Assembly (NCBI GenBank): GCA_052327205.1
Contig: CM126212.1
Location: 167,896,001-167,960,000, forward strand
Direction: 5' to 3'
DNA: 64,000 nucleotides
Source of the DNA: Somniosus microcephalus
Lineage: Eukaryota
Shown one piece after another: positions 4,041-63,600 of the stretch. A model generated the notes under the pieces. That model made no database searches. It saw nothing but the letters and a program-made list of their open reading frames with translations, and was not told where the DNA came from. Each line of letters starts with the position of its first letter. Positions within the stretch are counted from its first letter, which is position 1. The position numbers were made by a program, and so were the translations under genes.

Positions 4041-5461
4041 AATTGTAGTTCAGTGTTTGCAACCCAGGCACAACAACAAAAATAAACTAAAATGACCATG
4101 ATGCTCCTGTTAAGATGTGTCCCAAGCTGCAATCTAAATTATTTTAGGGACTGTCTTCTTTATTATGATGCTTTTGTTTTCTGTTATGGGGCTAAGTGTC
4201 AATGTGGATTAAATCTGTATGTCTGACCCATAGCTCTGCTCCTTTCATATCTCCCACTTACATATTGAATGTGTTAGTTGTTAGCATTACTTCAGCACTA
4301 ACAGGGTGATGAGTTGCTTCATTTTTTTAAATTTTCAATCTCACTGGTCTTAAGGTAACCAAGTACCTTGTTAGTTGCTTTGTGGACTTCTCTATTATTC
4401 ACCCATTTATTGCTTGTGACTAAAATACCCAGCAATATCTTGAGGTCCTTTTCATAAAAGTTGAGACCAGTCTGAGTGTCTGACTAACTTCAGTCGTTCA
4501 CGTGTAACTGTGTATTGCCCTCAGTGACTGTTAATTCATCACTGTTTGTCTCTGTGGTTCAGAAGTGGCAGGTGATGCTTGTAAACATGAAAGGTGCAAA
4601 ATTCTATGGTCACCGCTCCGTTACTTGATCAGCAGCGAAATGGGACTCCCAGTTTCCTGCACCCATGGGTGCTGACCCCATGCCAAATCACAGGCATGGG
4701 TCATTAGCATGTTCGGGATGGGTGCATCAGCGGTGCACACCCTAACTTGCTGGCAGGGAAGGAGAGTGGCTGGGGTATTAGTGTTCCAAGAGACCCCTGT
4801 TCCATTGGGTGCTGTTACTGTGGTAAAGTAATTGATTCCCTTTGGCAAAGCCTGAGGCATTTTCTGGGGACTCAGTGAAACATATACCAGCCCTTTTCCT
4901 TTGAAGGCAGAGAGGGCAGAATTGCTGGGACAGCCCAGCAGATTACCCTAGCATGTCCACCTGGTGAAGTGTATCCAGCTGTGCCCTGCCCCACACCTAC
5001 TGGAAAATGGACATAGCTTAAAAAACAGGTGCAATCCGGACACACCCTGATTCCACTCCATTCTCCGAGCTCTTAACTGGAGATCCATCCCATTTGCACC
5101 TTAACCCAGACCACAATTTGGAACCAGAATTTATTTTACAATAGTCTATAATTAGTAGTTTTATAGCTAAAGTCATTACACAGATGACACTGTTCTCGGA
5201 GCCACTTTAGTATACCTGTTCACCTTGCGACAGTTACCATTAAAGATAAATCTATTTAGCTATTTGGTGGAAATCAACAATCTAATTGGAACATAAAGGT
5301 GCACACTACCGGCAGTAAACACAGGGCAGAATATCCATTCCAACAGTAAAAGGAGCTGTTTTCAACTTTAAAAAATATTTATTGCAAACTGTCACCACAC
5401 CAGTTTCATTAATCTGCTGAAGACCAGATCCCAGCTGTGTCAGAGTGTGGTGCACAAAAAT

Positions 5462-6374
5462 GGGCAGTGTGGCACAGTGTTAGCACCACCAGGAGCAGTG
5501 GGGTACAGTGTTAGCACCACCAGGAGCAGTGGGGTAGTGTTACCACCACCAGGGGCAGTGGGTACCGTGTTACCACCACCAGGGGCAGTGGGTACAGTGT
5601 TACCACCAACAGGAGCAGTGGGGTACAGTGTTACCACCACCAGGGGCAGTGGGGTACAGTGTTACCACCACCAGGAGCAGTGGGGTACAGTGTTACCACC
5701 AACAGGAGCAGTGGGGTACAGTGTTACCACCACCAGGAGCAGTGGGGTACAGTGTTAGCACCACCAGGGGCAGTGAGGCACAGTGTTACCACCACCAGGA
5801 GCAGTGGGGTACAGTGTTACCACCACCAGGGGCAGTGGGGTACAGTGTTACCACCACCAGGGGCAGTGGGGTAAAGTGTTACCACCACCAGGGGCAGTGG
5901 GGTAAAGTGTTACCGTCACCAGGGGCAGTGGGTACAGTGTTACCACCACCAGGGGCAGTGGGGTACTGTGTTACCACCACCAGGGGCAGTGGGTACAGTG
6001 TTAACATCACCAGGGGCAGTGGGGTACAGTGTTACCGTCACCAGGAGCAGTGGGGTACAGTGTTACCGTCACCAGGAGCAGTGGGTACAGTGTTACCGCC
6101 ACTAGGGGCAGTGGGTACCGTGTTACCGCCACTAGGGGCAGTGGGGTACAGTGTTACCGTCACCAGGAGCAGTGGGTACAGTGTTACCGCCACTAGGGGC
6201 AGTGGGGTACAGTGTTACCGTCACCAGGAGCAGTGGGTACAATGTCACCGCCACTAGGGGCAGTGGGTACCATGTTACCACCAACAGGAGCAGTGGGGTA
6301 CAGTGTTACCACCACCAGGAGCAGTGGGGTACAGTGTTACCACCACCAGGGGCAGTGGGGTACAGTGTTACCAC
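5462..6374 (+). repeat. Minisatellite, 30/31-bp unit GG(G)TACAGTGTTACCACCACCAGGGGCAGTG, left block
   Basis: About 30 tandem units read directly. Confidence 0.97.
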
Positions 6375-6815
6375 TGTAGTGGCGCTTCGTAATTTCCAAA
6401 CATGCAGCCACTGAGCTTTGAGGCTTTTAACAACGAGTAGACGCGTGTTGAAATAAAACGTTCCAAAACGTAACTTTGTCCTTAAACTGTTTACTGTAAC
6501 ACCTTACAAACAGAATTACAAAGCAAAACACGTTTAAACGAACACGGTCAAAAACTGTATTGCTCCAGCCCTCAAAGTCTTTACCTTCTCTCTAGCCTCG
6601 TGGAGCTGGAACTGTAAAATGGCTGGATACCATGTGACAAGCTTAAGGACTGTACCATTGTGGCAAGAATAAAGGGGGTATCTCAGACTATACTACTGGA
6701 ACAAGAAAATAGGGGGTTTCTCAATACAATAAGTCAGTCAGGTAAATTAACTGTATTATACTATTTAACCAATATTTTAAAGTATTTTCTTTCTTAAACT
6801 TTCATGACTCTTACA
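6375..6815. mobile_element. Solo LTR (441 bp) inserted in the minisatellite
   Basis: TGTA...TACA termini, 5-bp TSD ACCAC/ACCGC, AATAAA motifs; the array resumes directly afterwards. Confidence 0.8.
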
Positions 6816-8270
6816 ACCGCCACCAGGGGCAGTGGGGTAAAGTGTTACCACCACCAGGGCCAGTGAGGTACAGTGTTACCACCACCAGGGGCAGTGGGTA
6901 CAGTGTTACCACCACCAGGGGCAATGGGTACAGTGTTACCACCACCAGGGGCAGTGGGGTAAAGTGTTACCGCCACCAGGGCCAGTGGGGTACAGTGTTA
7001 CTGCCACCAGGGGCAGTGGGGTAAAGTGTTACCACCACCAGGGACAGTGTGGTACAGTGTTACCACCACCAGGGGCAGTGGGGTAAAGTGTCACCGCCAC
7101 CAGGGGCAGTGGGGTAAAGTGTTACCACCACCAGGGGCAGTGGGGTACAGTGTTACCACCACCAGGGACAGTGTGGTACAGTGTTACCACCACCAGGGGC
7201 AGTGGGGTAAAATGTTACCGCCACCAGGGGCAGTGGGGTAAAGTGTTACCACCACCAGGGGCAGTGGGGTACAGTGTTACCACCACCAGGGGCAGTGGGG
7301 TACAGTGTTACCACCACCAGGGGCAGTGGGGTACAGTGTTACCACCACCAGGGGCAATGGGTACAGTGTTACCACCACCAGGGGCAGTGGGGTACAGTGT
7401 TACCACCACCAGGGGCAGTGGGGTACAGTGTTACCACCACCAGGAGCAGTGGGGTACAGTGTTACCACCACCAGGGGCAATGGGTACAGTGTTACTGCCA
7501 CCAGCGGCAGTGGGGTACAGTGTTACCGCCACCAGGGGTAATGTGGTATATTTTACCACCATCGGGGGCAGTGTGGTAAAGTGTTACCACCACCAGGGGC
7601 AGTGGGGTACAGTGTTACCACCACCAGGAGCAGTGGGGTACAGTGTTACCACCACCAGGGGCAATGGGTACAGTGTTACTGCCACCAGCGGCAGTGGGGT
7701 ACAGTGTTACCGCCACCAGGGGTAATGTGGTATATTTTACCACCATCGGGGGCAGTGTGGTAAAGTGTTACCACCACCAGGGGCAGTGGGTACAGTGTTA
7801 CCACCACCAGGGGCAGTGGGGTACAGTGTTACCGCAACCAGCGGCAGTGTGATACAGTGTTACCGCCACCAGGGATAGTGGGTACAGTGTTACCACCAAC
7901 AGGGGCAGTGGGTACAGTGCTACCGCCACCAGCGGCAGTGAGTACAGTGTTACCACCACCAGGGAGTGTGGGGTACAGTGTTACCTCCACCAGGGGCAGT
8001 GGGTACAGTGTTACCGCCACCAGGGGCAGTGTGGTACAGTGTTACCATCACCAGGGGCAGTGGGGTAAAGTGTTACTGCCACCAGCGGCAGTGAGTACAG
8101 TGTTACCGCCACCAGGGAGTGTGGGGTACAGTGTTACCACCACCAGGGGCAGTGGGTACAGTGTTATAGCCACCAGGGGCAGTGTGGTACAGTGCTACCG
8201 CCACCAGCGGCAGTGTGGTACAGTGTTACCGCCACCAGGAGCAGTGGGTACAGTGTTGCCACCACTATCG
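6816..8270 (+). repeat. Minisatellite, right block, with a 184-bp higher-order duplication
   Basis: Same unit as the left block. The variant unit GTAATGTGGTATATTTTACCACCATCGG recurs at 7538 and 7722. Confidence 0.97.
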
Positions 8271-8452
8271 GGAGGTTTACTTTGAAAACCTGTTCTCGAT
8301 GCAATGTTCCATGCCTCCTGTCATTGAATCACGTGATTAAATGATATTGCTTTACAGCATGTAAAACATTTTTTTAAATGCCAATAATCATAGGACCACG
8401 AATAAAAATTTGGTACAGACATATCTCTCAATTACCATTAATCAGCTGCATC

Positions 8453-15481: not shown

Positions 15482-15756
15482 TCTTATGTTCATTAATAAA
15501 TAGACATTCTTATTATGAACACAGCTAGCTTTTGCTAGACACTTTTATTGAGCACATGTGGACTAGGTATTGTATCTGTAGAGGTGTCCATCTTGACTGC
15601 TGCCTTGTGGGTAGCCTAGTGCCTCATGGGTAATGTAGTCTTAATATACATACAGCTGGGTAATGTAGTCTTATACATACAGCTATATACAGCTCTACAC
15701 AGCTCTACGGCTCCACCTAGTGTCCACTATAGAATGACATGTTATTGATCATTACA
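15482..15756 (-). repeat. 3' LTR of Gypsy element 1
   Basis: Direct repeat of 19885-20149 with roughly 10 substitutions and a 10-bp indel; PPT CAAAGAAAGGGGGA at 15757-15770. Confidence 0.95.
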
Positions 15757-15903
15757 TCCCCCTTTCTTTGAGGTTTAACAAAATCAATATCAATCAACGT
15801 TCAAGACAACAATAAAGATAATATCAGTAACACTTTTGTTAGTGCTCTATAAACATAAACATTTTCAAAACAGTCAACACATTTTCAAAGCTTTACATTG
15901 TAC

Positions 15904-18900
15904 TCAAAGATTAAGTCTATCAGGCTCTTTTACTTCACGTGTGGATCTTCTCAACATGGGTAAGTCTGATGTGTCTTCATGAGATTGTTCTGGTGGTGAA
16001 TGACAAGATGCAGTTGCGGCATTGTCATCAATCTGCTCTTGAATAGTCTCTTGTGTTTTTAGGAGGGAACGGCGGTTCCTCCTGAGAATCTGTCCTTCCT
16101 CAGTTCTAACAGTGTATGACCTTGGTCCTACTTCCTCAAGAACTGTAGCTTTCCTGTTCCATGCATCTGGATCCTCAATCCTGACAACATCATCCCTTGT
16201 CAATGGTTTTAGAGTTTTGGATGACTTGTCATAGTATGATTTCTGTTTCAGCTTTAACAGTTGAAGTCTCTGTCTCAGTTCCTCACTTTGCTGTTCTTTT
16301 GCACAGCAGGGTAGCATGGTGCACAACTTGTGACCCATTAGTAGTTCAGCAGGTGAAGAACCACAGTCTAAAGGTGAGGCTCGGTAGCTCAGCAGGGCGA
16401 GATAAGGATCAGACTTGCTTTCTGTCGCTTTCTTCAGTAGCTGCTTGAGAACTTGAACACCTTTCTCTGCCTTACCATTTGACTGAGCATACAAAGGACT
16501 GGATGTGATGTGCTGAAAGTCATACTGTGCTGCAAACTGTTGCCACTTCTTACAGTTGAAGCACGGACCATTGTCGCTAACGGCAATCCTGGGAATTCCA
16601 TGTCTGGCGAAGATGGATTTCACATGCATTATGACACTGCTTGCTGTGGTGCTTGAGAGCAGCGCCATCTCAGGATAGTTAGAATAGTAGTCAATCACTA
16701 TTAGATAGTCTTTACCATTTAAATGAAAAAGGTCCATACCAACCTTTTGCCATGGTGCTGTTGGTATGTCAGCTACTATCATTGGTTCCTTTGCTTGTTT
16801 GTTTTGGTGTTTCTGACATGTCTCACATTTGCCTATCATGTTCTCAATGTCCTTATTTATGCCAGGCCAATAAACAGTGTCTCTTGCCCTCCTTTTGCAT
16901 TTTTCAATTCCGAGGTGTCCCTCATGAATCCTTTTGCGCATGTCTTGACGTAGAGCCTGTGGAATGACTATTCTGTTCTGTTTTAGTAATAGTCCACTTG
17001 CGACACTCAATTCTGACCTTATGTGAAAATATTTTGGACAGGAACCTTTTGGCCAACCATGATGAATGTTCTCTATTACTGTTTGTATTACTGTATCTTT
17101 TACTGTTTCTTCTGCTATTTGCTTTAATTTTGTGTCTGACACGGGCAGCGCAGCAGTGACCATACTCACATGAACATCCATGTCTTCTTCAGTAGAGCTC
17201 ACATGACTCATTGTGGGTGCTCGGGATAGTGCATCTGCTAACACTATGTATTTGCCTGGTGTGTAGATCAGTTCAAAGTCATATCTTTGCAGCTTCATCA
17301 TGAGTCGTTGAATCCTTGGAGACATCTCATTCAGGTTTTTTTTTATGATGGCAACCAGTGGGCTGTGGTCTGTCTCAACTGTGAAGGTGGGAAGTCCATA
17401 TATGTAGCCATGAAACTTTTCTAGTCCAACTACCAAGCCTAGACATTCCTTTTCAATCTGGGCGTATCGACACTCAGTATCAGTCATAGACCTGGAGGCA
17501 TAGGCAACAGGCTTCCAATCTTCACCCTCTGCTTGTAGCAAGACCGCACCTAGGCCATCTTTTGATGCATCCGTTGACACTTTGATTCTTTTTGTTGGGT
17601 CAAAGAAGGTGAGTACAGGTGTGGTCGTCAGCACTGTTTTGAGGTTTATCCACTCTTGTTCATGTCTTTCTGTCCATGCGAACTCATTTGTTTTATGTAG
17701 CAGGTCTCGCAGACAGGCTGTCTTGGCTGACAAGTTAGGAATGAACTTTCCAATGAAGTTTATCATCCCCATGATGCGTAGCACTCCTTTTTTGTCAGTG
17801 GGTCGGGGCATTTTGAGTATGGCATTTACTTTTTCCATATCTGGCTCTATTCCTTTACCAGATAGATTGTCTCCTAGGAAAGTGACTTCCTGGACGCCAA
17901 ACTGACACTTGGCTTTGTTGAGCTTCAGTCCATTCTGGCGTATGCTCTGTAGCACTTTAGTCAGTCTCTCATTGTGTTCTTTCAGTGTGGAGCCCCAGAT
18001 GATGATGTCATCAACATAGACCCGAACTCCTTCCAGACCTTCAATTATGTGTTCCATCACTCTATGAAAGATTTCAGATGCAGATATTATCCCGAAAGGC
18101 ATTCTGAGGAAACAATACCTGCCAAATGATGTGTTGAAAGTACAGTATTTGGTGCTCTCTTCATCCAGTTTTAGTTGCCAAAATCCTTGTGAGGCATCGA
18201 GCTTTGTAAAATATCTGGCACCTGACATTTCACTGGTGATTTCTTCTCGCTTGGGAATCTGGTAGTGTTCACGTTTTATGTTTGCATTTAAGTCCTTTGG
18301 ATCCATGCATATTCTTAGATCATTGTTCTTTTTCTTTACACATACCATGGAGTTAACCCAGTCTGTTGGCTCTTCGACTTTCCTGATGACTCCTAGTGTG
18401 GTCATTCTGTCCAGTTCATTCTTGAGCCGGTCATGCAGGGGTGCTGGAACTCTTCGTGGAGCATGTACCACTGGCTGAGCATCCTGCTTTAGCTGGATCT
18501 TGTAAGTGAATGGTAGAACTCCAAATCCTTTGAACACATCCTGGAAATTATTCACTACAGAATCCACCGAGTCATCTGGTCTGCTTATGGCACAGTTTAT
18601 ACGGTAGACTCTCTTGACCAGTTCTAAGTCCTCACAAGCTTTGTCACCTAGTAGAGAATCAAGTCTTTCAGCCACAACAGAAAACATGAGATGATGCACT
18701 TTGTCTTTGACTGTCACTTTAAGTCTGCATACATCTAAGCTATCTATTTTCTGTCCATTATAGTCCTTCAGTAGTACTGACTTTTTCTGTATTTTGGGCT
18801 TTTCTTTCATATTGTTAATGTCACTCATACTGATTAAGTTTGCTTTTGCCCCAGTGTCTAGTTTCAAGGTAACTAATGCTCCATTTACCTGCAGTGGGAT

Positions 18901-19449
18901 CATCCATTTGTCCTCTTTTACTGCATTAACTTTATGTTCAGCATTGTCCATTTCTGAGGGTTGCACATTTTCTGTATCCTTTTTGATATTGTCACATGAC
19001 ACCATTCGTACAAAATATGCCTCACTTAAATCAGTGTCCTCAATTACATTAACTCGTTGCCCATTCTTAGTTTTTACTTTTGAAAAGCATTGTTTGGCAA
19101 AGTGATTCTTTCCATTACACTTTGTGCATATTTTTCCAAACGCTGGGCATTGTTTTAACTGGTGTTGGTAACCACAGCGTTTACAATTAAAAATTTCATC
19201 CTCCGATTGCTTTTCATTTCTGTTCTGCCCACGTTTCTTCCCCTTGTAGGACACAGCACCGACAGCAGCATTATCACTCATTACAATCGCATCATTATTG
19301 ATTTCACTGAAAGTCTTCGCATGCTTTCGAGCTGGCTCGCTGGCTTGGCATATTTTCACCGCATTTTCCAAATTTAGTTTGGTTTCTCTCAACAGACGTT
19401 CCCTGACTTTTTTATCATGAATACCAAACACAATCTGGTCACGAATCAT
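15904..19449 (-). CDS. Gag(C-terminal)-Pol polyprotein ORF, 1181 aa
   Basis: Zinc knuckles (CKRCGYQH, CTKCNGKNHFAKQC), protease LDTGA, RT LDASQGF/YVDD, RNase H TDAS, integrase HEGHLG..C..C, DYYS, SDNG, NGKAE. Confidence 0.95.
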   Translation of the reverse strand: MIRDQIVFGIHDKKVRERLLRETKLNLENAVKICQASEPARKHAKTFSEINNDAIVMSDNAAVGAVSYKGKKRGQNRNEKQSEDEIFNCKRCGYQHQLKQCPAFGKICTKCNGKNHFAKQCFSKVKTKNGQRVNVIEDTDLSEAYFVRMVSCDNIKKDTENVQPSEMDNAEHKVNAVKEDKWMIPLQVNGALVTLKLDTGAKANLISMSDINNMKEKPKIQKKSVLLKDYNGQKIDSLDVCRLKVTVKDKVHHLMFSVVAERLDSLLGDKACEDLELVKRVYRINCAISRPDDSVDSVVNNFQDVFKGFGVLPFTYKIQLKQDAQPVVHAPRRVPAPLHDRLKNELDRMTTLGVIRKVEEPTDWVNSMVCVKKKNNDLRICMDPKDLNANIKREHYQIPKREEITSEMSGARYFTKLDASQGFWQLKLDEESTKYCTFNTSFGRYCFLRMPFGIISASEIFHRVMEHIIEGLEGVRVYVDDIIIWGSTLKEHNERLTKVLQSIRQNGLKLNKAKCQFGVQEVTFLGDNLSGKGIEPDMEKVNAILKMPRPTDKKGVLRIMGMINFIGKFIPNLSAKTACLRDLLHKTNEFAWTERHEQEWINLKTVLTTTPVLTFFDPTKRIKVSTDASKDGLGAVLLQAEGEDWKPVAYASRSMTDTECRYAQIEKECLGLVVGLEKFHGYIYGLPTFTVETDHSPLVAIIKKNLNEMSPRIQRLMMKLQRYDFELIYTPGKYIVLADALSRAPTMSHVSSTEEDMDVHVSMVTAALPVSDTKLKQIAEETVKDTVIQTVIENIHHGWPKGSCPKYFHIRSELSVASGLLLKQNRIVIPQALRQDMRKRIHEGHLGIEKCKRRARDTVYWPGINKDIENMIGKCETCQKHQNKQAKEPMIVADIPTAPWQKVGMDLFHLNGKDYLIVIDYYSNYPEMALLSSTTASSVIMHVKSIFARHGIPRIAVSDNGPCFNCKKWQQFAAQYDFQHITSSPLYAQSNGKAEKGVQVLKQLLKKATESKSDPYLALLSYRASPLDCGSSPAELLMGHKLCTMLPCCAKEQQSEELRQRLQLLKLKQKSYYDKSSKTLKPLTRDDVVRIEDPDAWNRKATVLEEVGPRSYTVRTEEGQILRRNRRSLLKTQETIQEQIDDNAATASCHSPPEQSHEDTSDLPMLRRSTREVKEPDRLNL

Positions 19450-19455
19450 GGATGC

Positions 19456-19839
19456 TTAGAGCTCAGAGAAATTACATGTCTGTGCTTTCAGTTTCAGATC
19501 AGTTATAAAGCTATCAAAAGTCTCATTTTGTTGCTGTGTCCGAGAACGGAAGATGTATCTTTCATATGTCTCATTCTTTTTGGGAGAGCAATGTGCATCA
19601 AATTTTTTTAGCACATCTTCTAATTTTTCTCTGTTCTCTGGATTAAATACAAATGTATTAAATACCTCTATCGCCTGTGGGCCTGCAACCGTAAGCAGCA
19701 ACGCTATCTTCCTTGCGTCTGGCTTCGTACCGAATCCGATGGCTGCAATGTAGAGTTCGAATTGTTGTTTAAAAGCCTGCCAATTGTAGTCGATTTTTCC
19801 TTTGAGTTTCAAACGCTCTGGTGGCTTCAAATTCTCCAT
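19456..19839 (-). pseudogene. Gag N-terminus, separated from the pol-containing ORF by one in-frame TAA
   Basis: MENLKPP...WQAFKQQFELY...ERYIFRSR...CNFSEL* is in the same frame as the downstream ASMIRDQIVFG. Confidence 0.9.
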
Positions 19840-19873
19840 TTCGTTTTTCACAATTTTCAGCAGATCTTCACCA

Positions 19874-19884
19874 TCCTGGTACCA
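19874..19884 (-). promoter_or_regulatory. Primer binding site, tRNA-Leu(UAA)-like
   Basis: TGGTACCAGGA lies immediately after the 5' LTR and is complementary to the vertebrate tRNA-Leu(UAA) 3' end (recalled, not searched). Confidence 0.75.
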
Positions 19885-20149
19885 TCTTATGTTCATTAAT
19901 AAATAGACATTCTTATTATGAACACAGCTAGCTTTTGCTAGCTACTTTTATTGAGCACATGTGGACTAGGTACTGTATCTGTAGAGGCTTCCATCTTGAC
20001 TGCTGCCTTGTGGGTAGCCTAGTGCCTCATTGGTAATGTAGTCTTAATATCTATACAGCTGGGTAGTGTAGTCTTATACATACAGCTATATACAGCTCTA
20101 CGGCTCCACCTAGTGTCCACTATAGAATTACATGTTATTGATCATTACA
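19885..20149 (-). repeat. 5' LTR of Gypsy element 1
   Basis: TGTAATGAT...CATAAGA; contains AATAAA and an internal ~30-bp tandem duplication. Confidence 0.95.
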
Positions 20150-22901: not shown

Positions 22902-24809
22902 GAAAGTTCCGAGGAGCACTAAAATGGTAAAATTGGTAAAGTACATTTCGACAAGAAATTGAATGAGGGGTTAGGAATGAGGGAAGAATCAACTATGAAA
23001 TAAGCTTTTTATTTTATTTTTTCTCGGAGTGGTTCTACAAATTCCTAGATCTTGCAACAATGCCAAATTCTGGGATACACTTTAGCTTTATTAAGAATTG
23101 AGTGCTGTAGAGGGGAAAAAAAGTCTCTAATACAAAAGAGGAAACAAACGCATTCAGAGCCACTAGTGCAGAATGACTGAATAAATAAAATTGTACTTTA
23201 TTGGATGAAATTCTGTTTTTATGTATGTTTTGTGAATTCAATTCTGCAATTCTGTCCACTTTTGCATTAAAATCTTAATCCGTGGCATTGATTATTATCT
23301 GTTCCTTTACCTGTTTACTCAGTTTTTATATCTTAGCTGTGTGTAAAGCTCAAGATAAATTATGTGGGCCAGGATGGAGATAAGTAACTCGATAGCAAAA
23401 TACTGCAGATGCTGGAAATCCGAAAAAGATAGGTAACTGTTGTTTAGCTGGCCCTTTGATAATATGGGTAGTGATCTTGGGGGCTTCAGCAGAATTGGAG
23501 TGAGGATCGTCGAGTTTGGCATGACTGTGTACAGCAAAGAAAGATAGAACTTGCTTTTATATAGTGCCTTTCAACCCTCGAAATGTCTCCAAGTGCTTTA
23601 TAGCCAATTAATTAAATTGAAGTGTACTCTGACATAGGAAACCAGGGAGAATCCTGGGGTTTAGCAAAACAGGAGGGGAGGAAATGAATCACGAGTTTCA
23701 GTCATATTTCTAAGGCAATAAGAAAGCCCTTGTATTTCAATATCTTTGTATAGGAGTCTGGCAGGCACTTGAAATGTTAATTACTGCAAGCTGCTTCCTC
23801 AAGCTGCAGAGAATACTTATTATAGTCTATTGTGAAGAAGGTTGTTTCAAAGGCATTGATATGTGGATGTTTACTGGTGCCATTGTTCTTTGACAAAGAA
23901 ATATCTTTCAGTTCAGCCAAAGTGTTTAGAACAGATTTTGTTTTCAACATTAAGGGGCAAGTCCCTTCAGATACTCGTACCCCGGGGATCTTTTTAAGTA
24001 TATGTTTGATTGACAGCTTCATTTTTAATCTTCATTATTCCCATAAGTCTTCAAAGGATTTTGAAAGTACATCTTGGGATGACTTGCTCAAATTCAGCCA
24101 TCTTTCTGAAGTCATCAGAGGCAAGATTGGCAGCAAACTGCCACATAAGTTTATGGTCAGAAGGGACCTTCCCTTGGGTCCAGATTTACATTGAGTTTTA
24201 GTGCAGGAGATGGAACTGTTAGTTTCTGTTTTCTGAGGAGGAATAGTGACGTTTGTTATTACTGTGAATCTGCTGTTTGTCTTTGATACTGTTGTCGCTG
24301 CTTGTAAATTGCTCAGGTCAATTGGAGCCCAGTAAGTGGCTTATAAATTTCAGGCTCCAACCAGTAAGTAACTATCTGTGATAGCCAAATGTGATAGCTG
24401 AAGAAAAATCTGACTGGTGAATTGGTGCTTAGGCTGGAGTAACTTGGAGCAGGTTTCTATGTTTTGTAAAGTACACTAAAAGGTTACTGCTTTTCTTTTA
24501 TTGTTTATTCGCTACATTCAAAAGCAGCCACTGTCCATAGAAGCAAGTAACAAATACAGGAAGAGCTGTACCATTTGAAGTTTGATGGGATTTTTCTGAA
24601 TAAAAGTCCTGGTGTCAACATGTATATTTAGATAAAACTATTTGGTAACATTAAGTACTGCTGCAAAGATATTTAATAAAGACGGAAACAGACATTGTAA
24701 TGTCTTTAATACAAAAAGAAAATACTGCAGATGCTGGAAATCTGAAATAAAAACAGAAAATGCTGGAGAAACTCAGCAGGTCAGGCAGCATCTGTGAAGA
24801 GAGAAACAG

Positions 24810-24846
24810 AGTTAACGTTTCAGGTCAATGACCTTTCGTCAGAACT
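24810..24846 (-). ncRNA. Minimal type I hammerhead ribozyme motif (Penelope pLTR)
   Basis: Minus strand reads AGUU-CUGACGA-A-AGGUC(AUU)GACCU-GAAA-CGUU-AACU: intact core, stem II, palindromic stem III and stem I. Confidence 0.85.
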
Positions 24847-25406
24847 GGAAAAAAGCAGGAAATGGAACAGATTTTAAGCAAGTGAAGAGGCTGGGAAAGG
24901 GGGGAGGGGATGAAAGAACAAAAGGGAAGATCTGTGATAGGATGGAAGGTGGAAGAGATTAAGAGACATTAAGAGATTTTCAAGGCAAAAGGAGATGGTA
25001 ATGGAACAGGTTAAGAAACAAAGGATGGCTCTAGATGAAGTGTAAATTGTGCTGGCAGAATGAAAGACAGCTGCCATGTGGGGGAGAAGAAAAAAAGACA
25101 CAGACAAAAAGTGTGGATAAAAAATATATATATATATAGGATAGGGGCCGAGGTTATGATCTGAAATTGTTGAACTCTATGTTGAGTCCGAAAGGCTGTA
25201 AAGTGCCTAATCGAAAGGTGAGGTGCTGTTCCTCGAGCTTACACTGAGCTTCATTGGAACAGTACAAGAGGCCGAGGATGGTGAGGTCTGAGTGGGAGTG
25301 GAGCGGTGAATTAAAATGACAGGCGACCGGAAGCTCGGGGTCACCCTTACGGACTGAACGGAGGTGTTCCGCAAAGCGGTCACCCAATCTGCGTTTGGTT
25401 TCCCCG

Positions 25407-25796
25407 CCCCTCCACGACACCCTTGTCTACTCCGCTATCACCCCCAACACCCCTTCCCTTTCGCCTGGCACCTTCCCATGCAAGCGCAGGAGATGCAACA
25501 CATGCCCTTATACGTCACCCCTTCCCACTGTCCAGGGCCCCAAACACCCCTTCCAGGTGAAACAGCGATTTACTTGTACTTCTCGCAATTTAGTATACTG
25601 TATTCGCTGTTCACGATGTGGTCTCCTCTATATTGGGGAGACCAAACACAGATTGGGTGACCGGTTTGCAGAACACCTCCGTTCAGTCCATAAGGGGGAC
25701 CCTGAGCTTCTGGGCGCCTGTCACTTTAATTCACCGCTCCACTCCCACTCAGACCTCACCGTCCTCGGCCTCTTGCATTGTTTCACGGAAGTTTAG
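25407..25796 (+). pseudogene. Penelope GIY-YIG endonuclease C-terminal fragment
   Basis: CKRRRCNTC...FTCTSRNLVYCIRCSRCGLLYIGETKHRLGDRFAEH; premature stop; no RT. Confidence 0.9.
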
Positions 25797-26174
25797 CGTA
25801 AGCTCGAGGAACAGCACCTCATCTTTCGATTAGGCACTTTACAGCCTTCCGGATTCAACATAGAGTTCAACAATTTCAGATCATAACCTTGGCCCCTATC
25901 ATATATATATTTTTTTTTTTATCCACACTTTTTGTCTGTCTTTTTTTCTTCTCCCCCACATGGCAGCTGTCTTTCATTCTGCCAGCACAATTTACACTTC
26001 ATCTAGAGCCATCCTTTGTTTCTTAACCTGTTCCATTACCATCTCCTTTTGCCTTGAATATCTCTTAATGCCTTCCATCCTATCACAGACCTTCCCTTTT
26101 GTTCTTTCATCCCCTCCCCCCTTTCCCAGCTCCTGCACTTGCTTAAAAATCTGTTCCATTTCCTGCTTTTTTCC

Positions 26175-26211
26175 AGTTCTGATGAAAGGTCATCGACCTG
26201 AAATGTTAACT
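26175..26211 (+). ncRNA. Minimal hammerhead ribozyme motif (Penelope pLTR)
   Basis: AGUU-CUGAUGA-A-AGGUC(AUC)GACCU-GAAA-UGUU-AACU; C>T change in stem III. Confidence 0.8.
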
Positions 26212-26297
26212 CTGTTTCTCTCGTCACAGATGCTGCCTGACCTGCTGAGCTTCTCCAGCATTTTCTGTTTTTATTTGTAATCTCGCTATATCTCTAT

Positions 26298-36938: not shown

Positions 36939-37562
36939 GGGGTAAAAATGGGGGGGAGCACCACAGCGCCCCCATGGCCGATTTTCCCAGGTAGCGCCCC
37001 GAGAGGGAGGAGGGGTGCTACTGGAAGCGCCTCGCGTCCCTCTTGGGGCGCTACGAGCTAATATCACGGTACTACGGGCGCTGCGGCACGTCGCGCTGTG
37101 GTACTGCAGGCCTTCCTCCCCTTATTAAAGGGGAGGGGCCTGGCGCAGCGTGTCCCGGTGCCCAGCTGGACCACCAGGGATCAGAAGTGCTGGCAAAGGA
37201 GCCCGCACTCACGTAGAGCAGCCAGCACACCGCGGGGGGGCTTCACGGAGGCCGGGGACAGCAGAGGGAGCAGTTGCTGGCAGGCAGCCAGCAACAAAAA
37301 TGGCCGCCCGCCACCTCCCCTTTAACTAGTGCCGCCCCGGCTGCAGATAGGCCCCCCCTGACCCCGGCGGACATAGCGTCCGGCGGTAAGTCGGGGGGCA
37401 CCACCCAATATTACAGCTGGGGTGCGAGCGGGGCACTGCACACGGTGATGACGTCATCGCTGGTGGCGCGGTGCTAACGGTTAGCGCCGCCGCTAACCTC
37501 CCGTTGAATTTCCCAGGCGCTAGTTGCTTTGTGCCCACGGAAGGTGCAAATCAACCGAATTT
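36939..37562. mobile_element. GC-rich MITE family member with a damaged right end
   Basis: Starts GGGGTAAAAATGGG; contains GATGACGTCATC and the tactgcaggccttcctcccct motif; opposite orientation to 38258-38930. Confidence 0.7.
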
Positions 37563-38257
37563 AGTGTTATCCATCACCAAGACCACTTAGTTACATCTCC
37601 ACAGCCCTTCTGCCACTGTAACCCTCATGTACTTTGTCTTCTCCAGACTCAATTATTCCAAAGTTTTCCTTGCTAGCCGCCCATTCCTGCATGTTGCATA
37701 ACTTCAACTTATCCAGAACTATGCTGCTGGTGTCCAGCTCACCCATTAACCCCATCCTCTCTGACCAACCTTGGCTCCCCATCTCTCTGAATTTAAAATC
37801 CTCATCTTGTCTAGAAATAACTGTGTGCCTTCAGCTCATCATATTCTTGCAGCTCCGTCAGCCCAATATCCCCTTCTGTGCAATCCCATCACTCCCTTTG
37901 CCCCAACATTGGTGCTATTTTCTGGAGCCCCCTTCCTAAATTTCTCCACCTTTTTTAAGTAAAAAAATCTTTTTGTTCCCTCCCAATGCCTAAAGTTGTT
38001 CTCCCCAAAGCAGCAGCACCAGAATTCTGCCCTCTTCCCTTTGCTTTTCATTGCTGCCATTTTCTCTCCTTCATTTCCTCCCTTCCCTTCACCTTCAATT
38101 CTCCATTGAGGGGAGAGGTTGATCTGCATGATCCTTGTCTGCTGGATTGAACCCTGTCTACATTTGATGCTTGTATGTATAGTACATACTGTTTTTATAC
38201 CAGTTCTATTTTTAGTAGATTTGTGCTCCGTTTTAGTAGTAATTTGACTGATTTAAA

Positions 38258-38930
38258 GGGGGGAAAATTGGATCGCTTTGCGCCTCCCATTAGCGCCCCA
38301 AGGGAGCGCTAACAGGTCGCAAAGCACCTAGCGCCCAGGTCACGAAGTTGCTAATGCCTCCCGTGAAATTCAGTGGCAAGTTAGCGGTGGCAGTAGCCGG
38401 TAGCGCCCTGCGGTGATGACGTCATCACTGTGCGCAGCGCCCCGCTTGCGCCCCCTACCTACCGCCGGACGCTATGTCCGACAGGGTCAGGGTGCAGTGT
38501 TTGTGGCCTGGGCGGCGCAAATGAAAGGGCAGGTGCCGGGCGGCCATTTTCTTTGGGCTACCTGCCAGCTCCTGCCCCCTCTCACCTCCTCCTGCGGGGT
38601 GCTGGCCATGATCAGTCAGTCCGGCACTCCTCTTGAGTACCGGCCCCTTTTGCCGGCACCCCGCTCTCCGTTGGTCCAGCAGGGCCCCGGTGCGTGCTGC
38701 GCTAGGCCCCTCCCCTTTAATCAGGGGAGGGAGGCCTGTAGTACCGTGGCGCTACTGCACGTAGCACCGCAATATTGAATGTGAGCGCCCCAAGAGGGAG
38801 GGGGAGCGCTTCCAGTAGTGCCCTGCCTTCTGCTTGGTGTGTTACCATTCAATTTTGGGCGCGGGGGAGCTAACAGTAGCGCCCCGGCGAAGTTAGCGTC
38901 CCAAAGGGGGTGCGACCCAATTTTTCCCCC
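38258..38930. mobile_element. GC-rich MITE family member
   Basis: TIRs GGGGGGAAAATTGGATCGC / GCGACCCAATTTTTCCCCC, TSD AAA, central GATGACGTCATC. Confidence 0.85.
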
Positions 38931-39092
38931 AAAGTGTTTAATGACTTCATTTTCAGCACAAAGTATTCATACAACAATTTGATTAAAAAGTCAATATTTT
39001 ACAGAAAGATGGAAAGAAGTTGAATCTTTTTCAAATTTTTTGCACCTTACTCACCTCCTCTCCTGGTTATAGTCCAACAGCTTTATTTGAAA

Positions 39093-39129
39093 TCACAAGC
39101 TTTCGGAGTGCTGCTCCTTCGTCAGGTGA
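39093..39129 (-). ncRNA. Minimal hammerhead ribozyme motif, mirror copy
   Basis: Reverse complement of the 39214-39250 motif, with one mismatch in stem II. Confidence 0.78.
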
Positions 39130-39213
39130 AGTGAAGAGATGCATATAAGCACAGCATATATAGTCAGAGTGATCTCTGACTATATATGCTGTGCCTATAT
39201 GCATCTCTTCACT

Positions 39214-39250
39214 TCACCTGACGAAGGAGCAGCGCTCCGAAAGCTTGTGA
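39214..39250 (+). ncRNA. Minimal type I hammerhead ribozyme motif
   Basis: UCAC-CUGACGA-A-GGAGC(AGC)GCUCC-GAAA-GCUU-GUGA: intact core, 5-bp stem II, palindromic AAGCUU stem III, 4-bp stem I. Confidence 0.88.
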
Positions 39251-39933
39251 TTTCAAATAAAGCTGTTGGACTATAACCTGGTGTTGTGTGACTTCTCGCA
39301 TTTGTCCACCTCAGTCCAACACCAGCATCTCCACATCACACCTCCTCTCCTGGAAGTGCTGACTCCTACTGGAGAACAGTTGCACAGCTGCCCTCCAACA
39401 CTTGGCAGGTCTGTAAATCTCCTGTGTTCAGGAGGAGTCTTACATGTTTAATCCTGGCCCTCCTCCTCTCCCCCACCAGCTGAGGATACAAATCCCCCAT
39501 TTCCTGCTTCAGGATTGGGATCTTTCCCCTCCTCCTTCACTAATATGTACATAATCCATTTTGCCGGAGGATCATTCTGTACTATGTGCACATTCCAGAA
39601 TTTCTTTTGCTTTGGCTGGAAAGTGAGCGATCACTATGGAGGTACAGTTATCGTAATACTGGTAGTACAGACTTTCTATTAAAACTAGAAGTTACGATAA
39701 TTTTAGTAGAGGGCTTTACTGCTGCTACAAATGTCTTATTTCCACTGTGGTCACTAGTTTTGTCTCACTCTCCAGAGAGAAAATACTCACCAGACATACA
39801 AATTTTAGTAATTCAGCAAACCTAGGATTTCACCAGTCTGGCCTGGCCTTTACTCACTGAGCCACCAACAGCGCCAGCTTTAAGATATTCAGGCTCCCCA
39901 GTGAGGTTAGTATACCCCCCCTCCAGTCAATCA

Positions 39934-40384: not shown

Positions 40385-40612
40385 AAGAAAAGAAATAACT
40401 TGCATTTATATGGTGCCTTTCATGACCACAGGATTTCTCAACGCACTTTACAACCAATGAAGTACTTTTGAATTGTAGTCACTGTTGTAATGTAGGAAAT
40501 ATGGCAGGTAATTTGTACACAGCAAGGTCCTACAAACAACAATGAGTTAATGACAAGAAAATCTGTGTTAGTGTTGTTGATTGAGGGATAATTATTGGCC
40601 AGAATACCAAGG
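40385..40612 (-). mobile_element. SINE 3' half (DeuSINE-like)
   Basis: Reverse complement of the 3' half of 41062-41515. Confidence 0.75.
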
Positions 40613-41061
40613 AGTGTGACAACCGAGAAACTGCAGATTTACCAGCAGGCTCTCACTATCCCGCCACCACCCCCCCCCCCCACTTCAGCTGCAGCTTTCA
40701 CTTGAACCTAAAGTACGCTATAGCTATCAAGGGAACTCCAGACTTGAAATGAAGTTGAAGACCAAAAAGATTGGTCTTCAACTTGATTGTATTGAATTGA
40801 TCTTAATGTGAAAAGGAAAACTTTGTATTTGAAATTTTATATTACCCATTTATTGTGCAATGTCTGAATGGTGGGGCAGTTGCATCTTCTTATGTGTGTC
40901 TGTGTATACCTGGGAGTACTCAAAAACAACAACAGCAGAGAAAGGGTTAATTTCAAGGAGGCAAGTCATCATCTGTACCATCTGAATAAGGAATGCAACT
41001 GTATGTAAAATGTGTTGAATTTAAACAAGGTGACTCTTCAGCCATAATAAGTCTTATCCAC

Positions 41062-41515
41062 AGTGTCAGCTGTGGCTCAGTTGGGAAGCCCTCTCACCTC
41101 TGAGTCAGAAGGTTGTGGGTTTAAGTCCCACTCCAGAGACTTGAGCACAAAAATCTAGGCTGACACTCTAGTGTAGCGCTGAGGGAGTGCTGCACTGTCA
41201 GAGGTGCCGTCTTTCAGATGAGACGTTAAACCAAGGCCCCGTCTGATCTCTCAGGTGGACGTATTATTTCGAAGAAGAGCAGAAGAGTTATCCCTGGTGT
41301 CCTGGCCAATATTTATCCGTCAACTAACATAACAAAAGCAGATTATCTGGTCATTATCACATTGTTGTTTGTGGGAACTTGCTGTGCGCAAATTGGCTGT
41401 CGCGTTTCCCACATTACAACAGTGACGACACTTCAAAAGTACTTCATTGGCTGTAAAGCACTTTGGGACATCCGGTGGTCACGAAAGGCGCTATATAAAT
41501 GCAAATCTTTCTCTC
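41062..41515 (+). mobile_element. tRNA-derived SINE (DeuSINE/SacSINE1-like), full length
   Basis: A box TGGCTCAGTTGG, B box GGTTTAAGTCC, tail gcgctatataaatgcaaatcttt. Confidence 0.85.
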
Positions 41516-44972: not shown

Positions 44973-44985
44973 CCTTTTAACCTTG

Positions 44986-45230
44986 ATATAAAAACAGAAA
45001 ATGCTGGAAATACTCAGCAGGTCAGACAGCATCTGTGGCGAGAGAAACAGAGTTATCGTTTCAGGTCGATGACCTTTCGTCAGAACTGGAAAAAGTTAGA
45101 GATATAACAGATTTTAAGCAACTGCAGGGGCAGGGACAGTGGGGAGGAGAGGGGAGGGGAGGAAAGATCAAGCACGAGAAGGGAAACAGAAAGCAATGAA
45201 GATGAACAAGGTAAAAGAGACAAATGGAAA
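44986..45230 (-). mobile_element. Penelope pLTR fragment with a mutated hammerhead motif (45051-45087)
   Basis: Homologous to 24745-24950; core CUGACGA...GAAA followed by CGAU instead of CGUU. Confidence 0.8.
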
Positions 45231-59212: not shown

Positions 59213-60403
59213 ATTTTTACTCACAACAACACAATCTCGTTGCTTGAGCTTCAGATATTTCACTGAAACATTTTTTTTTTGCTTGGTCTTTGGCTCAGAG
59301 ATTGTTGTTATTTGTACTCTGAAAGAAGACAAATTCTTTAGGAGCTCAAAATTATTATGAGCATCATTTAAAAGTGAAAATCCGATTTTGTGAATTAATT
59401 ATAAAGTCAACATCACGCCGTGAAAATGGTGATCGCCATTGATTTTAATGGGGGCGAAGCTATGATAAACACTGTTTTTGGTGAGGATAATGCAGGAGAG
59501 GTGCAAAAGCCCCAGGACAATATGGAGTGGCATAATTAATGTTACTTACCCCATAATTTCCTCCTTTTGCACTGTTCAAGTGTCCCTCCACCAGAGATAT
59601 GCCATTACAATGGCTCAAGTCCTCAGGAAATTGTGGGCCATTGTGTTGGATAAAATCCACTTGAAAAGAAAGCAGCATTGGTAAGATCTCTACAGTATTG
59701 GCCGTTATCTTAATGTACAAACTATCATTTCTCCCTCGTTGGAGTGTATGTGCTTTAAGTCAGAACTACTTTTTACAGCTCCTGTATACTGTAGTACCGG
59801 CAGTAACCACACCGGTATATAAGCTGTGCGCATGCCTCTGTACCCCAGTCTAGAAATTACCCTCCTCCAGTAAAGACCTGTTATTTGTTTATGTACAGCA
59901 TCCGTGTCATTATTTATCCACTGAACCACGGATCTAACAGTGGCGACGAGTGTTGATGCGAATCTACCTACAACATAAAAAAAAAAGTCGAGTCCAGGAA
60001 CACGGGCGTTGACCGCGAGCAACCGCCCAGCAGTCAGGCAGAGATCCAACTTCGCTGGGGAGGCTGTGGAGAGCCGGGCCTGGTTCCCCAGCCACAACGA
60101 ACAGTAAGAGACCGACGACAGGTCCAGAGCAGACCCTTCCCGAGCAGCGGCGGCTGGAACCGACCGACGGCAGAGAGAGAGAGCCGGGCAGTGTCGACAG
60201 GGTAAGAAAGAGGGTGCAGAGAGCAGGGCGCAGCCAGGGGTTGATCACCGAGCGGCGTCGAGGAAAAATACTGCAAACCAGAGAGAGAGAGGGTAAGAAA
60301 CAGCCGGGTTCTAGACTGAGCGGCGTCGACAAATATCATGAGAAGAACGCGCAGAGCACAGCCAGGGATCACGGGCTGATCAGGGTCCGCGGGGCGAAGC
60401 AAG

Positions 60404-60642
60404 GGGAGACGCCATTGAGCCGCGGAGAAGCAGGGAGAGCGCGGGAGGCGCCATTGAGCCGTGGAGAAGCAGGGAGAGCGTGGGAGGCGCCATTGAGCCA
60501 CGGAGAAGAAGGAAGAGCGCGGGAGACGCCATTTTGCGAAGCCGCAGCGGAGAAGACGGGCGAGCGCAGGAAGGAAGGAAAGCGCGGGAGACGCCATTTT
60601 GTGCCAGCGGAGAAGAAGGGGAAGCGCGGGAGGCGCCATTGG
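60404..60642 (+). repeat. 39-bp tandem repeats in the Gypsy 5' leader
   Basis: GCCATT recurs at 60411, 60450, 60489 and 60528 (period 39), then at 60593 and 60635. Confidence 0.85.
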
Positions 60643-60665
60643 GGATAGTTAACGCACAACCAAGG

Positions 60666-63600
60666 ATGCCGAAGAGTGGCAGTATCTCTACGTTCGACAA
60701 TGAAGTCGAAGATTGGCCGACATATGTGGAACGTATTGAGGTGTACTGCAGGGTGAATGAAGTGCCAGATGCTAATAAAGCACTGGTTCTGTTAAATTCC
60801 ATGGGTGCAAAAACTTATGGGTTACTGCAAAATCTAATAACCCCAGAGAAGCCAGTAAACAAGAATTTTGAAAGCATAGTAGAAATCCTACAGGATCACT
60901 TAAACCCCACACCGCTGCTGATAGCAGAACGATTTAAGTTCCATAAAAGGAACCAACACAAAGACGAAAGCAATGCTGAGTACCTAACAGAACTGCACAA
61001 GCTATCAAAATACTGCCAGTTTGGAGCGGGACTAGCAGACACGTTAAGGGACAAGTTTGTGTGTGGGCTACAAAGTGAAGGAACCCAGAAACGGCTTCTA
61101 TCAGAAAAGGACCTTACGCTGGACAAAGCTTTCAATATGGCAGTATCACACGAAGCAGCCACAAGGGGCGCTGCAGAGATACAACGGAGACCGCAAGAAT
61201 ACGGCACCAACGAAATGACCTATGGAACAGGGAAGTGCTATCGCTGCGGCAGAACAACACATGATCAGAAAGATTGTTGGTTCAAGGACCAAGTGTGCAG
61301 ACAGTGTGGGAAAGCAGAACACATAGCAAGAGTCTGCAGGTCTGGGAAGAAAACCAACAGTAAGAAATCTCCACAGGAGAAGTACAAAAACGTACACCAG
61401 GTGATGGACAGTGGTTCAGACGAACAGAAAAGTGACACAGACTCCGGAAGCAAGGAGCTGGGTTGTCTGAAACTACATAATGTAACCGAAATGGAGGATC
61501 ACCAGACTATCTGGGTTACACTCAAGGTAGACGGAGTCCAAGTGGAAATGGGATTGGACACAGGGTCAGCTCTAACAGTCATAAATCAAAGAGACTACAA
61601 GCGGCTATTTTCACACATACCCTTGAAAGCTACAGAGATTGTCTTGAAGATGTATACGAGGCAAAAAGTCTACTCCAAAGGAAAAATAAGGGTGAAAGTG
61701 ACATATAAAGGTCAGGAAATACCTAAAATGGATATATATGTATTGCCAAATGGAGGACCACCACTGCTAGGACGTGAATGGATCCGGAAGATACATTTAG
61801 ATTGGCATTCCATGCAGGCACTGAAGGTGGAGGCCAAAAAGGATGACGACGTCACACCTGGACAACTGTCAAAAATGCTAACTGACGCAAAAGAAGTGTT
61901 CCAGGAGGGACTAGGAACACTAAAAGGAATAACAGCAACAATTAAAATAGAGGATAATGCAAGCCCAAAGTTTCTGAAGGCCAGACCAGTGCCTTATGCG
62001 ATCAGACCAGCCACCGAAGCAGAGCTGGAAGGGTTGGAACGTTCAGGAGTACTGTCCAAAGTGGACTGGAGCGAGTGGGCTACACCCATCATTCCTGTAA
62101 TGAAGAGGTCGTTGAGTAATACGCCTGGGGAACCAAAGAAGGTCCGCATCTGTGGGGCTTTTAAGGTGACAGTGAACCCAGTCCTTCACACGGTGCAATA
62201 TCCACTTCCACGAATTGAGGATATTTTCGCCTCGCTATCTGGTGGTAAACGCTTCACCAAAATTGATCTAGCCCAGGCGTACTTGCAAATGGAGGTCGAA
62301 GAAGCTTCGAAACATTACCTTACGATCAACACCCATAAAGGTCTCTATCAATACAACCGGCTGGTGTTTGGAGTAGCCTCGGCTCCGGCTATCTGGCAAA
62401 GGTCGATGGATCAGGTCCTGCAAGGGATTCCAGGGACCCAGTGTTATTTGGACGACATCTTGGTCACGGGCAAAAATAACGGTGACCACCTCACTAACTT
62501 GGAGAAGGTGCTCGCCAGATTAAAGGAATATGGGCTACGAGCTAATCGCCACAAGTTCGAGTTTTTCCAGAAACAGATATCTCGTATTGCGGCCACGTCA
62601 TCGATGAAAAGGGGTTACATAAGTCCCCTGACAAGATTGAGGCAGTAGTCAAGGCTCCAGCACCGGAAAATGTGTCACAACTGAGGTCGTTCCTCGGGCT
62701 GGTAAACTATTACCACAAGTTCTTACCAAATTTGTCTACGGTATTACACCCGCTGAACACCCTACTGCAAACAGGGGTACCATGGAAGTGGGATGACGAA
62801 CGTAGACGAGCTTTCCAGAAGTGTAAAGAATTGATCACATCAAAAGAGGTGTTGGCCCATTTCAACCCAGCACTACCAATTCGTTTGGCATGTGATGCAT
62901 CACCCTATGGTATTGGAGCGCTGCTGTCGCACAAATTCCCAGACGGGTTGGAGAGGCCAGTAGCCTTTGCGTCTCGGTCACTAACCTCAGCCGAGCGCAA
63001 CTACGCCCAGATTGACAGGGAGGCCCTCAGTCTAGTATGGGGAGTAAAAAAATTCAACCATTATCTGCATGGGCAGAAGTTCACCTTGCTGACTGACCAC
63101 CAACCACTTGTCTCCATCTTTAATCCTAAGAAGGGCGTGCCAGTAATGACTGCACAGCGGTTACAAAGCTGGTCCCTGTTTCTAGGGGCGAATCAATATG
63201 AAATATAATATAAAGGCACGAAACTGCATGGGAACGCTGATGGGCTATCGCACCTGCCACTGCCTACGGTGGAGGAAGCACCAGCAGTGGACCCTATCGA
63301 GATATTTTATTCATTGATAATTGAACGATTGCCAGTAACAAACACGGATATAGAGAAGGAGACCCGCAATGATCCGACGCTGTCACGGGTATATGAATTG
63401 ACGGTGAGGGGATGGCCAACACATGGCGACTCACTGTTGCCAGCATTCTCATCCAGAAGAGAACAGCTGTCAGTATGCCAGGGGACAGTGATGTGTGGAT
63501 CCAGAGTGGTGATTCCACCCAAGTTAAGGGAGAGAGTGCTAAAGGAGCTACATGAAGGTCATCTGGGGGAGTGAAAATGAAAAGCCTTGCTAGGGCGTAT

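Follow-up and report, generated by a model that had tools for sequence, protein, structure and literature searches.

How did an insertion arise that folds into a nearly perfect hairpin and carries a hammerhead ribozyme motif on each strand: as the stub of a truncated retrotransposon, or as a small element that multiplies as a unit? The sequence-only reading of this locus had offered both answers (an extreme truncated inversion of a Penelope-like element, PLE, or a self-propagating, retrozyme-like mini-element), and its description of the architecture is borne out by the coordinates and the pairing: the insert measures 272 bp, lies between exact direct repeats of 15 bp (target-site duplication, TSD: CACCTCCTCTCCTGG) and contains two arms of 105 bp (39065-39169 and 39174-39278; 103 of the 105 positions pair) separated by a loop of 4 nt (TGAT). 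The unpaired positions are 39148/39195 and 39109/39234, and as the two outermost nt of the left arm fall within the TSD, the insert itself is composed of 103 + 4 + 105 + 60 nt. The fold energy of the hairpin (-206.6 kcal/mol, z -28.9) was equalled by 0 of 200 shuffled sequences; the second stem, placed by the same reading at the 3' end (39278-39325), is exact across 9 bp (39278-39286/39317-39325), with a z of -2.4 that 3 of 200 shuffles matched. The insertion represents the hammerhead-bearing end of a highly abundant repeat family, first as an inverted and then as a sense copy, flanked by a TSD (Table 1), and no second copy of the hairpin's family was found within the 64-kb window (i.e. the whole stretch of DNA analysed).

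Table 1. Features of the insertion and its borders, in positions of the window.
Feature	Position	Strand	Remarks
Left TSD, 15 bp	39052..39066	.	final GG (2 nt) pairs additionally with the right arm's end; 4/5 nt of microhomology, CCTGG/CCAGG
Left arm: inverted, tail-less pseudo-LTR (pLTR) end, 103 nt inside the insert	39067..39169	-	
Mirror minimal hammerhead	39093..39129	-	core start 39125; the change at 39109 breaks the top pair of stem II
Inversion junction	39168..39173	+	AG found in the two arms and in the parent; loop TGAT, also in non-folded family copies
Right arm: sense pseudo-LTR end	39174..39278	+	
Minimal type I hammerhead	39214..39250	+	features as in the available part of PMC4209133; cut predicted after 39246
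Unpaired 3' part: pseudo-LTR end and Penelope 'tail' (about 39297/39304-39338)	39279..39338	+	holds the 9-bp stem 39278-86/39317-25
Right TSD	39339..39353	.	match of the organism C contig begins exactly here

The hammerheads with intact cores that had been read on both strands are present by anatomy, with core starts at 39218 (plus strand) and 39125 (minus strand). The plus-strand motif consists of stem I (39214-17/39247-50, 4 bp), the core (39218-24), an extra A (39225), stem II (39226-30/39234-38, 5 bp; 4 bp in the left copy), GAAA (39239-42) and the palindrome AGCU (39242-45), and it displays the marks of the minimal type I hammerhead of PLEs, as far as these are given in the available part of PMC4209133: conserved core, extra nucleotide 9/10.1, G10.1-C11.1 and palindromic 15.2-16.2. 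According to the same excerpt, minimal hammerheads of Schistosoma occur as pairs about 100-700 bp apart on opposite strands and have a stem II of 7-8 bp (5 bp here), whereas the cores described here stand only 93 bp apart inside one hairpin (PMC4209133). A covariance-model scan (Rfam), which the sequence-only reading had proposed as a check, did not recover the motif, and its assignment is anatomical: there was no hammerhead match at E ≤ 1 on the window, and none at E ≤ 10 on 39200-39345. All matches returned (9 at E ≤ 1 on the window, 1 at E ≤ 10 on 39200-39345) fell under gathering, and those on the element, miRNA models included, were rejected as reflections of the hairpin shape. The tail stem (39272-39333) is similar to a portion of the precursor model of miR-138 (E 0.4; 16 bits, with a gathering value of 50), a likeness that is probably due to chance, since family copies vary at 39321 and 39324.

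As stem III is merely a loopless palindrome (AGCU, 39242-39245), it cannot close within one motif, and a single RNA cannot bring the two motifs together as partners, since each is on a different strand; a transcript of either strand holds one motif, with the antisense copy transcribed before the ribozyme. In the accessible text of PMC4209133, a single minimal PLE motif is without cleavage and dimers show low cleavage. The fold computation leaves the core unpaired with a probability of at most 0.0007 in the transcript of either strand, which supports the earlier proposal of a ribozyme sequestered by the antisense arm. No support was found among the literature listed for regarding CUU as an inefficient cleavage site, an idea that was dropped. 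Among the 40 of 89 sequence differences listed for the family, the variants inside the motif affect N7, loop II together with the top of stem II, N17 and G12; the variant at G12 (5-10% of depth) is a CpG site, as is the one at 39234 (3-7% of contig depth), and the variant positions fit selection on the core in the source elements.

Insertions of PLEs are known to comprise an adjacent inverted and 5'-truncated copy, a tail of 30-40 bp at one end and a TSD (available parts of PMC8557442 and PMC3846280). The first of these, an adjacent, inverted, 5'-truncated copy placed head-to-head, is a feature of endonuclease-positive (EN+) PLE insertion and is present here, and so is a 30-40 bp tail at one end only: the 3' ends of the family fall into two clusters (39296-39308 and 39335-39338, 32-42 nt apart), and the left arm is without this part: it ends before the inner cluster is reached, at 39278, where it matches the target end in 4/5 letters. 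The insertion is in this way similar to the units of Pen2a_Av and other EN+ PLEs, in which (as excerpted from PMC3846280 and PMC8557442) an inverted, shortened pLTR stands head-to-head with a direct pLTR, with an optional one-end tail of 30-40 bp, a TSD and a palindrome or microhomology at the junction; unlike in those units, the truncation has left no ORF and the inverted arm ends here 18-25 nt before the family's usual inner end, and the TSD measures 15 bp instead of the 8-10 bp of the rotifer examples. It also resembles Poseidon PAc of Anolis in having two 3' end classes that bound the tail and a 3' stem-loop; within the available portion of PMC11167929, the PLE tail is tied to two RT start sites at a stem-loop, and both target strands are cut and extended by PAc in vitro. 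PAc prefers AT-rich targets, whereas the TSD here is C-rich (excerpt of PMC11167929). As the ORF of the parent was not recovered, PLE membership rests on this non-coding anatomy.

A second Penelope-like family in the window (24709-26276) provides a comparison at close range. It forms a head-to-head pair (24745-25405 and 25635-26276) with 661-bp arms that are 91% identical, a 229-bp spacer, about 36 extra tail-like nucleotides at the left end only, at most a degenerate 7-bp TSD, and a GIY-YIG remnant just under the Pfam cut-off (E 0.0004); its copy at 24842 has a hammerhead laid out in the same way, with the palindrome ACGU and stem letters of its own. The alignment score between this family and the 272-bp element (18) was reached by 208 of 500 shuffles, i.e. 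chance level, which supports the earlier proposal of separate lineages. The recurrence of the layout in an unrelated family indicates that it is a property of PLE insertion and not of one mini-element. A short single copy of the 24.7-kb family lies at 44984-45150, and all three copies carry a minimal hammerhead.

To place the insertion within its own family, we used four runs (of 24) that were aligned to 39140-39740 at 85% likeness: the contigs X1 (organism A), X3 (organism B) and X4 (organism C), and the raw RNA X21 (of organism A); the small shares of the remaining runs carry no weight here. Between 3,971 and 6,181 contigs per DNA run align on 39140-39740, and the summed contig depth runs to millions on the arm and to 9-19 on the flank; although such depth is no copy number, the great size of the family is evident. 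In contigs of A and B, the right junction shows no differences (X1 being possibly the source sample), and the match of a contig of C starts exactly at 39339, i.e. at the right TSD, after 150 other letters. A and B have the insertion, and for C we infer a site that is probably empty; the flank of C is otherwise close (17 differing letters and 11 gap letters over about 400). Non-folded copies run upstream from 39168 in 4, 8 and 12 contigs and from 39173 in 15, 17 and 9 contigs (X1, X3 and X4, respectively), from 39173 also in 152 RNA reads; up to 30 letters of this upstream sequence were covered. Since these copies extend upstream, the loop TGAT and the AG preceding it must be parent sequence, and the inversion joint thus makes use of a 2-nt match.

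Taken together, the insertion architecture, the parent-encoded loop and the clustered 3' ends support the first of the two answers given at the outset, an extreme truncated Penelope inversion, and we regard it as likely that the locus holds a one-off, heavily 5'-truncated copy of a Penelope-like retrotransposon, inverted probably during integration. Fold-back points elsewhere in the family are represented by one X1 contig, which turns at a palindrome around 39231 (AGCGCT, 39231-39236) and is the only other breakpoint among the 24 of 338 loose ends listed; no strand-change joint is listed in X1, X3 or X21. With so few loose ends and no such joint, the diversity of breakpoints within the family is thinly shown. 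Two further candidates were rejected, the first (a MITE or DNA transposon) since 60 nt of the element extend beyond the arms, which are therefore not at its ends, and since most contigs of the family have a single arm, and the second (an assembly artefact) in part, the right junction being clean in the contigs of A and B, though X1 is possibly the source sample and none of the pieces listed spans the loop.

The formation of such a truncated copy would begin with the GIY-YIG endonuclease of the element nicking both target strands about 15 nt apart. Reverse transcription would then start from the outer tail site (39338) and halt about 170 nt later (39168), and an inverted copy would arise, either because the cDNA snaps back or because the other nick primes a second cDNA; its joint would use a 2-nt match (AG/CT), the one that closes the TGAT micro-loop of the parent itself. 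The inverted copy would meet the target through a CC/GG match that lies 18-25 nt before the family's usual inner end, and gap filling would yield the TSD. The second ribozyme would be a by-product of the inversion, and read-through RNA would form a rod in which the ribozyme is switched off, and the prediction is that this copy has no ribozyme activity. Snap-back is favoured by the 4-nt loop; the two differing letters of the left arm, if they are family variants, would favour two templates. Similar features (an inverted 5' segment, a TSD and microhomology at the junction) typify the 5' inversions generated by L1 twin priming, in which, in contrast to the present case, the inverted segment is no duplicate of the sense segment. 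Junction palindromes in PLE insertions have been read as self-priming, with the template left open in the available part of PMC3846280.

Several observations on the family stand beside this account. Many of its contigs begin at 39209-39214 with unrelated flanks, just upstream of the hammerhead, where depth climbs steeply, and its most frequent form may be a short copy of about 90 bp that runs from the hammerhead to the inner end. Two contigs of organism C connect 39211 with 39301/39302 on opposite strands. Past 39335, 77 RNA reads continue into a mixed consensus (agreement 0.51) beginning CCATGG, possibly the start codon of the parent immediately after the tail. The flank contig 39392-39740 has a depth of 9.0 in X1, half that of other long contigs (17.6-18.2), and of 18.9 in X3; this flank may be single-dose, or one haplotype may have been filtered out.

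The left arm, through its depth, bears on the second answer. In the bin 39140-39160, summed contig depth amounts to 4,324 (X1), 4,049 (X3) and 20.4 (X4), i.e. about 240, 240 and 1 times that of long single-copy contigs in A, B and C, respectively, and the depth in A and B could reflect either a junction shared among copies or misplaced short contigs. A shared junction would follow if the whole hairpin were a non-autonomous mini-element, in which a founder fold-back was transcribed and re-inserted repeatedly by a parent RT/endonuclease that recognises the tail, a proposal that we consider improbable, though it draws on more than the depth contrast between A and B on the one hand and C on the other. 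A junction unitig of identical arms would span exactly 39140-39197 without run-over, as observed (the 1 run-over record in X1 is the right flank); in the literature, pLTR sequences alone are reported as mobilisable in trans (available part of PMC3846280), and insertion in vitro proceeds without need of ribozyme cleavage (available part of PMC11167929). On the other side, summed depth is no copy number, and short contigs of non-folded copies that share the letter of the left arm at 39195 would land on the left arm without run-over, a misplacement seen in 1-10 of 300 simulated pieces, depending on scoring. Identical arms would furthermore produce an A>G difference at 39148, of which there is none among the 40 of 89 differences listed; the left-arm bin is without RNA reads where 1.8-3.9 would be expected (a weak point); and the 64-kb window holds no second copy. 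In its full form, the proposal describes a lineage-specific family in A and B of up to a few hundred fold-back mini-elements with identical junctions, absent from C, MITE-shaped, mobilised as units by a tail-recognising Penelope-like RT with no ribozyme cleavage needed, the ribozyme locked off by the antisense arm, and seeding dsRNA against the parent; we assign a low probability to this scenario.

The depth of the left arm would also be accounted for if the loop were a hotspot, at which a micro-hairpin of the parent (AG-TGAT-CT) stops the RT and makes it fold back, so that copies sharing the loop would be independent of each other. In keeping with this, the loop and its closing AG/CT are parent-encoded, and the other fold-back seen lies likewise on a parent palindrome (AGCGCT, 39231-39236). 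Yet organism C has a parent-type depth of 384,103 in the bin 39161-39181 and 20.4 in the left-arm bin, and a stem of 2 bp is very weak; the hotspot is rated as less probable still than the mini-element.

A further possibility is that the locus is a retrozyme (self-cleaving, circularising and spreading as circular RNA), or that its hairpin is maintained as a small-RNA gene. The motif looks like a genuine minimal hammerhead, the hairpin is very stable, matches to Rfam miRNA models exist (all below gathering), and animal retrozymes derive from PLE pLTRs (excerpt of bioRxiv 10.64898/2026.07.22.740005); like the non-LTR retrozymes of animals, the element is non-coding, about 300 bp in size and PLE-pLTR-like, with a type I hammerhead (PMC7229834; bioRxiv 10.64898/2026.07.22.740005; available parts). 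Retrozymes are, in the same excerpts, defined by same-strand tandem ribozymes, and consist of head-to-tail tandem repeats with a same-strand ribozyme per unit and linear as well as circular RNA (PMC7229834; bioRxiv 10.64898/2026.07.22.740005), whereas the element here is head-to-head, single and flanked by a TSD, with no expression seen in 24% of one RNA run. It is without tandem same-strand ribozymes, and its core is buried in either transcript. We therefore do not follow the retrozyme-like option of the sequence-only reading, as each transcript would hold one motif where tandem hammerheads in the same orientation are needed, and the 24% of one run gave no RNA from the locus.

The RNA evidence consists of 889 reads on the family, from both strands (24% of run X21; one sample). 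None of these 889 falls in the left-arm bin (39140-39160) or in the flank (39350-39740), hairpins being poorly sequenced; for the bin, the 0 reads compare with 1.8-3.9 expected if proportional (P 0.16-0.02), which is weak evidence for the same reason. No pile-up of molecule starts or ends from X21 was seen anywhere on the aligned stretch, 39246 included, fragmented cDNA making this a weak test. The absence of reads and pile-up, which speaks for this one sample only, together with the probably empty site of organism C beside an otherwise close flank, speaks against both a retrozyme and a small-RNA gene, and we hold either to be very improbable.

Beyond these runs, a 29-nt hammerhead pattern had 0 matches in viral contigs and 0 in metagenome contigs, and a 23-nt hammerhead pattern had 0 in prokaryote genomes. 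An 18-nt junction pattern returned 5 metagenome matches, of 18-20 nt and with unrelated flanks, which were rejected as unrelated. No literature on self-propagating hairpin derivatives of PLEs, or on such stubs in sharks, was found in a search that covered few subscription journals; in the available part of PMC6155905, sharks are mentioned solely for ribozyme shape.

Most likely, the locus is an ordinary, dead-end truncated PLE copy, in which inverted copy, tail and TSD reproduce an already-known pattern of PLE insertion. As such it has little importance, yet it cleanly records how PLEs become inverted as they integrate, both joints showing microhomology and the loop being templated by the parent. 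An assembly with thousands of copies of this kind could settle the choice between snap-back and two-template priming, a question left open by the literature consulted. If the junction turned out to be shared, the locus would represent a hairpin-shaped, non-tandem, non-autonomous PLE derivative for which we found no description in the literature searched, and a natural source of dsRNA against the parent family.

With regard to the surroundings, a Pfam scan of the 117 open stretches of at least 62 aa in 26.3-52 kb gave 1 match, an RT fragment, and no host exon; as such a scan would miss short exons, the insertion may be intronic. Elsewhere in the window, an LTR-retrotransposon-like element on the minus strand (15482-20149) has an uninterrupted frame of 1,183 aa (protease-RT-RNase H-integrase) and a pair of direct repeats at its ends that are 93% identical, and a second one on the plus strand (60342-63208; protease, RT) has its pol split over two frames. 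Two blocks of tandem repeats (5453-8274) have a period of about 31/62 bp and are open in several frames. Finally, two further pairs of dispersed repeats in opposite orientation (36990-38846 and 40400-41504) are 68% and 82% identical, respectively, and have members less than 1 kb from each other.
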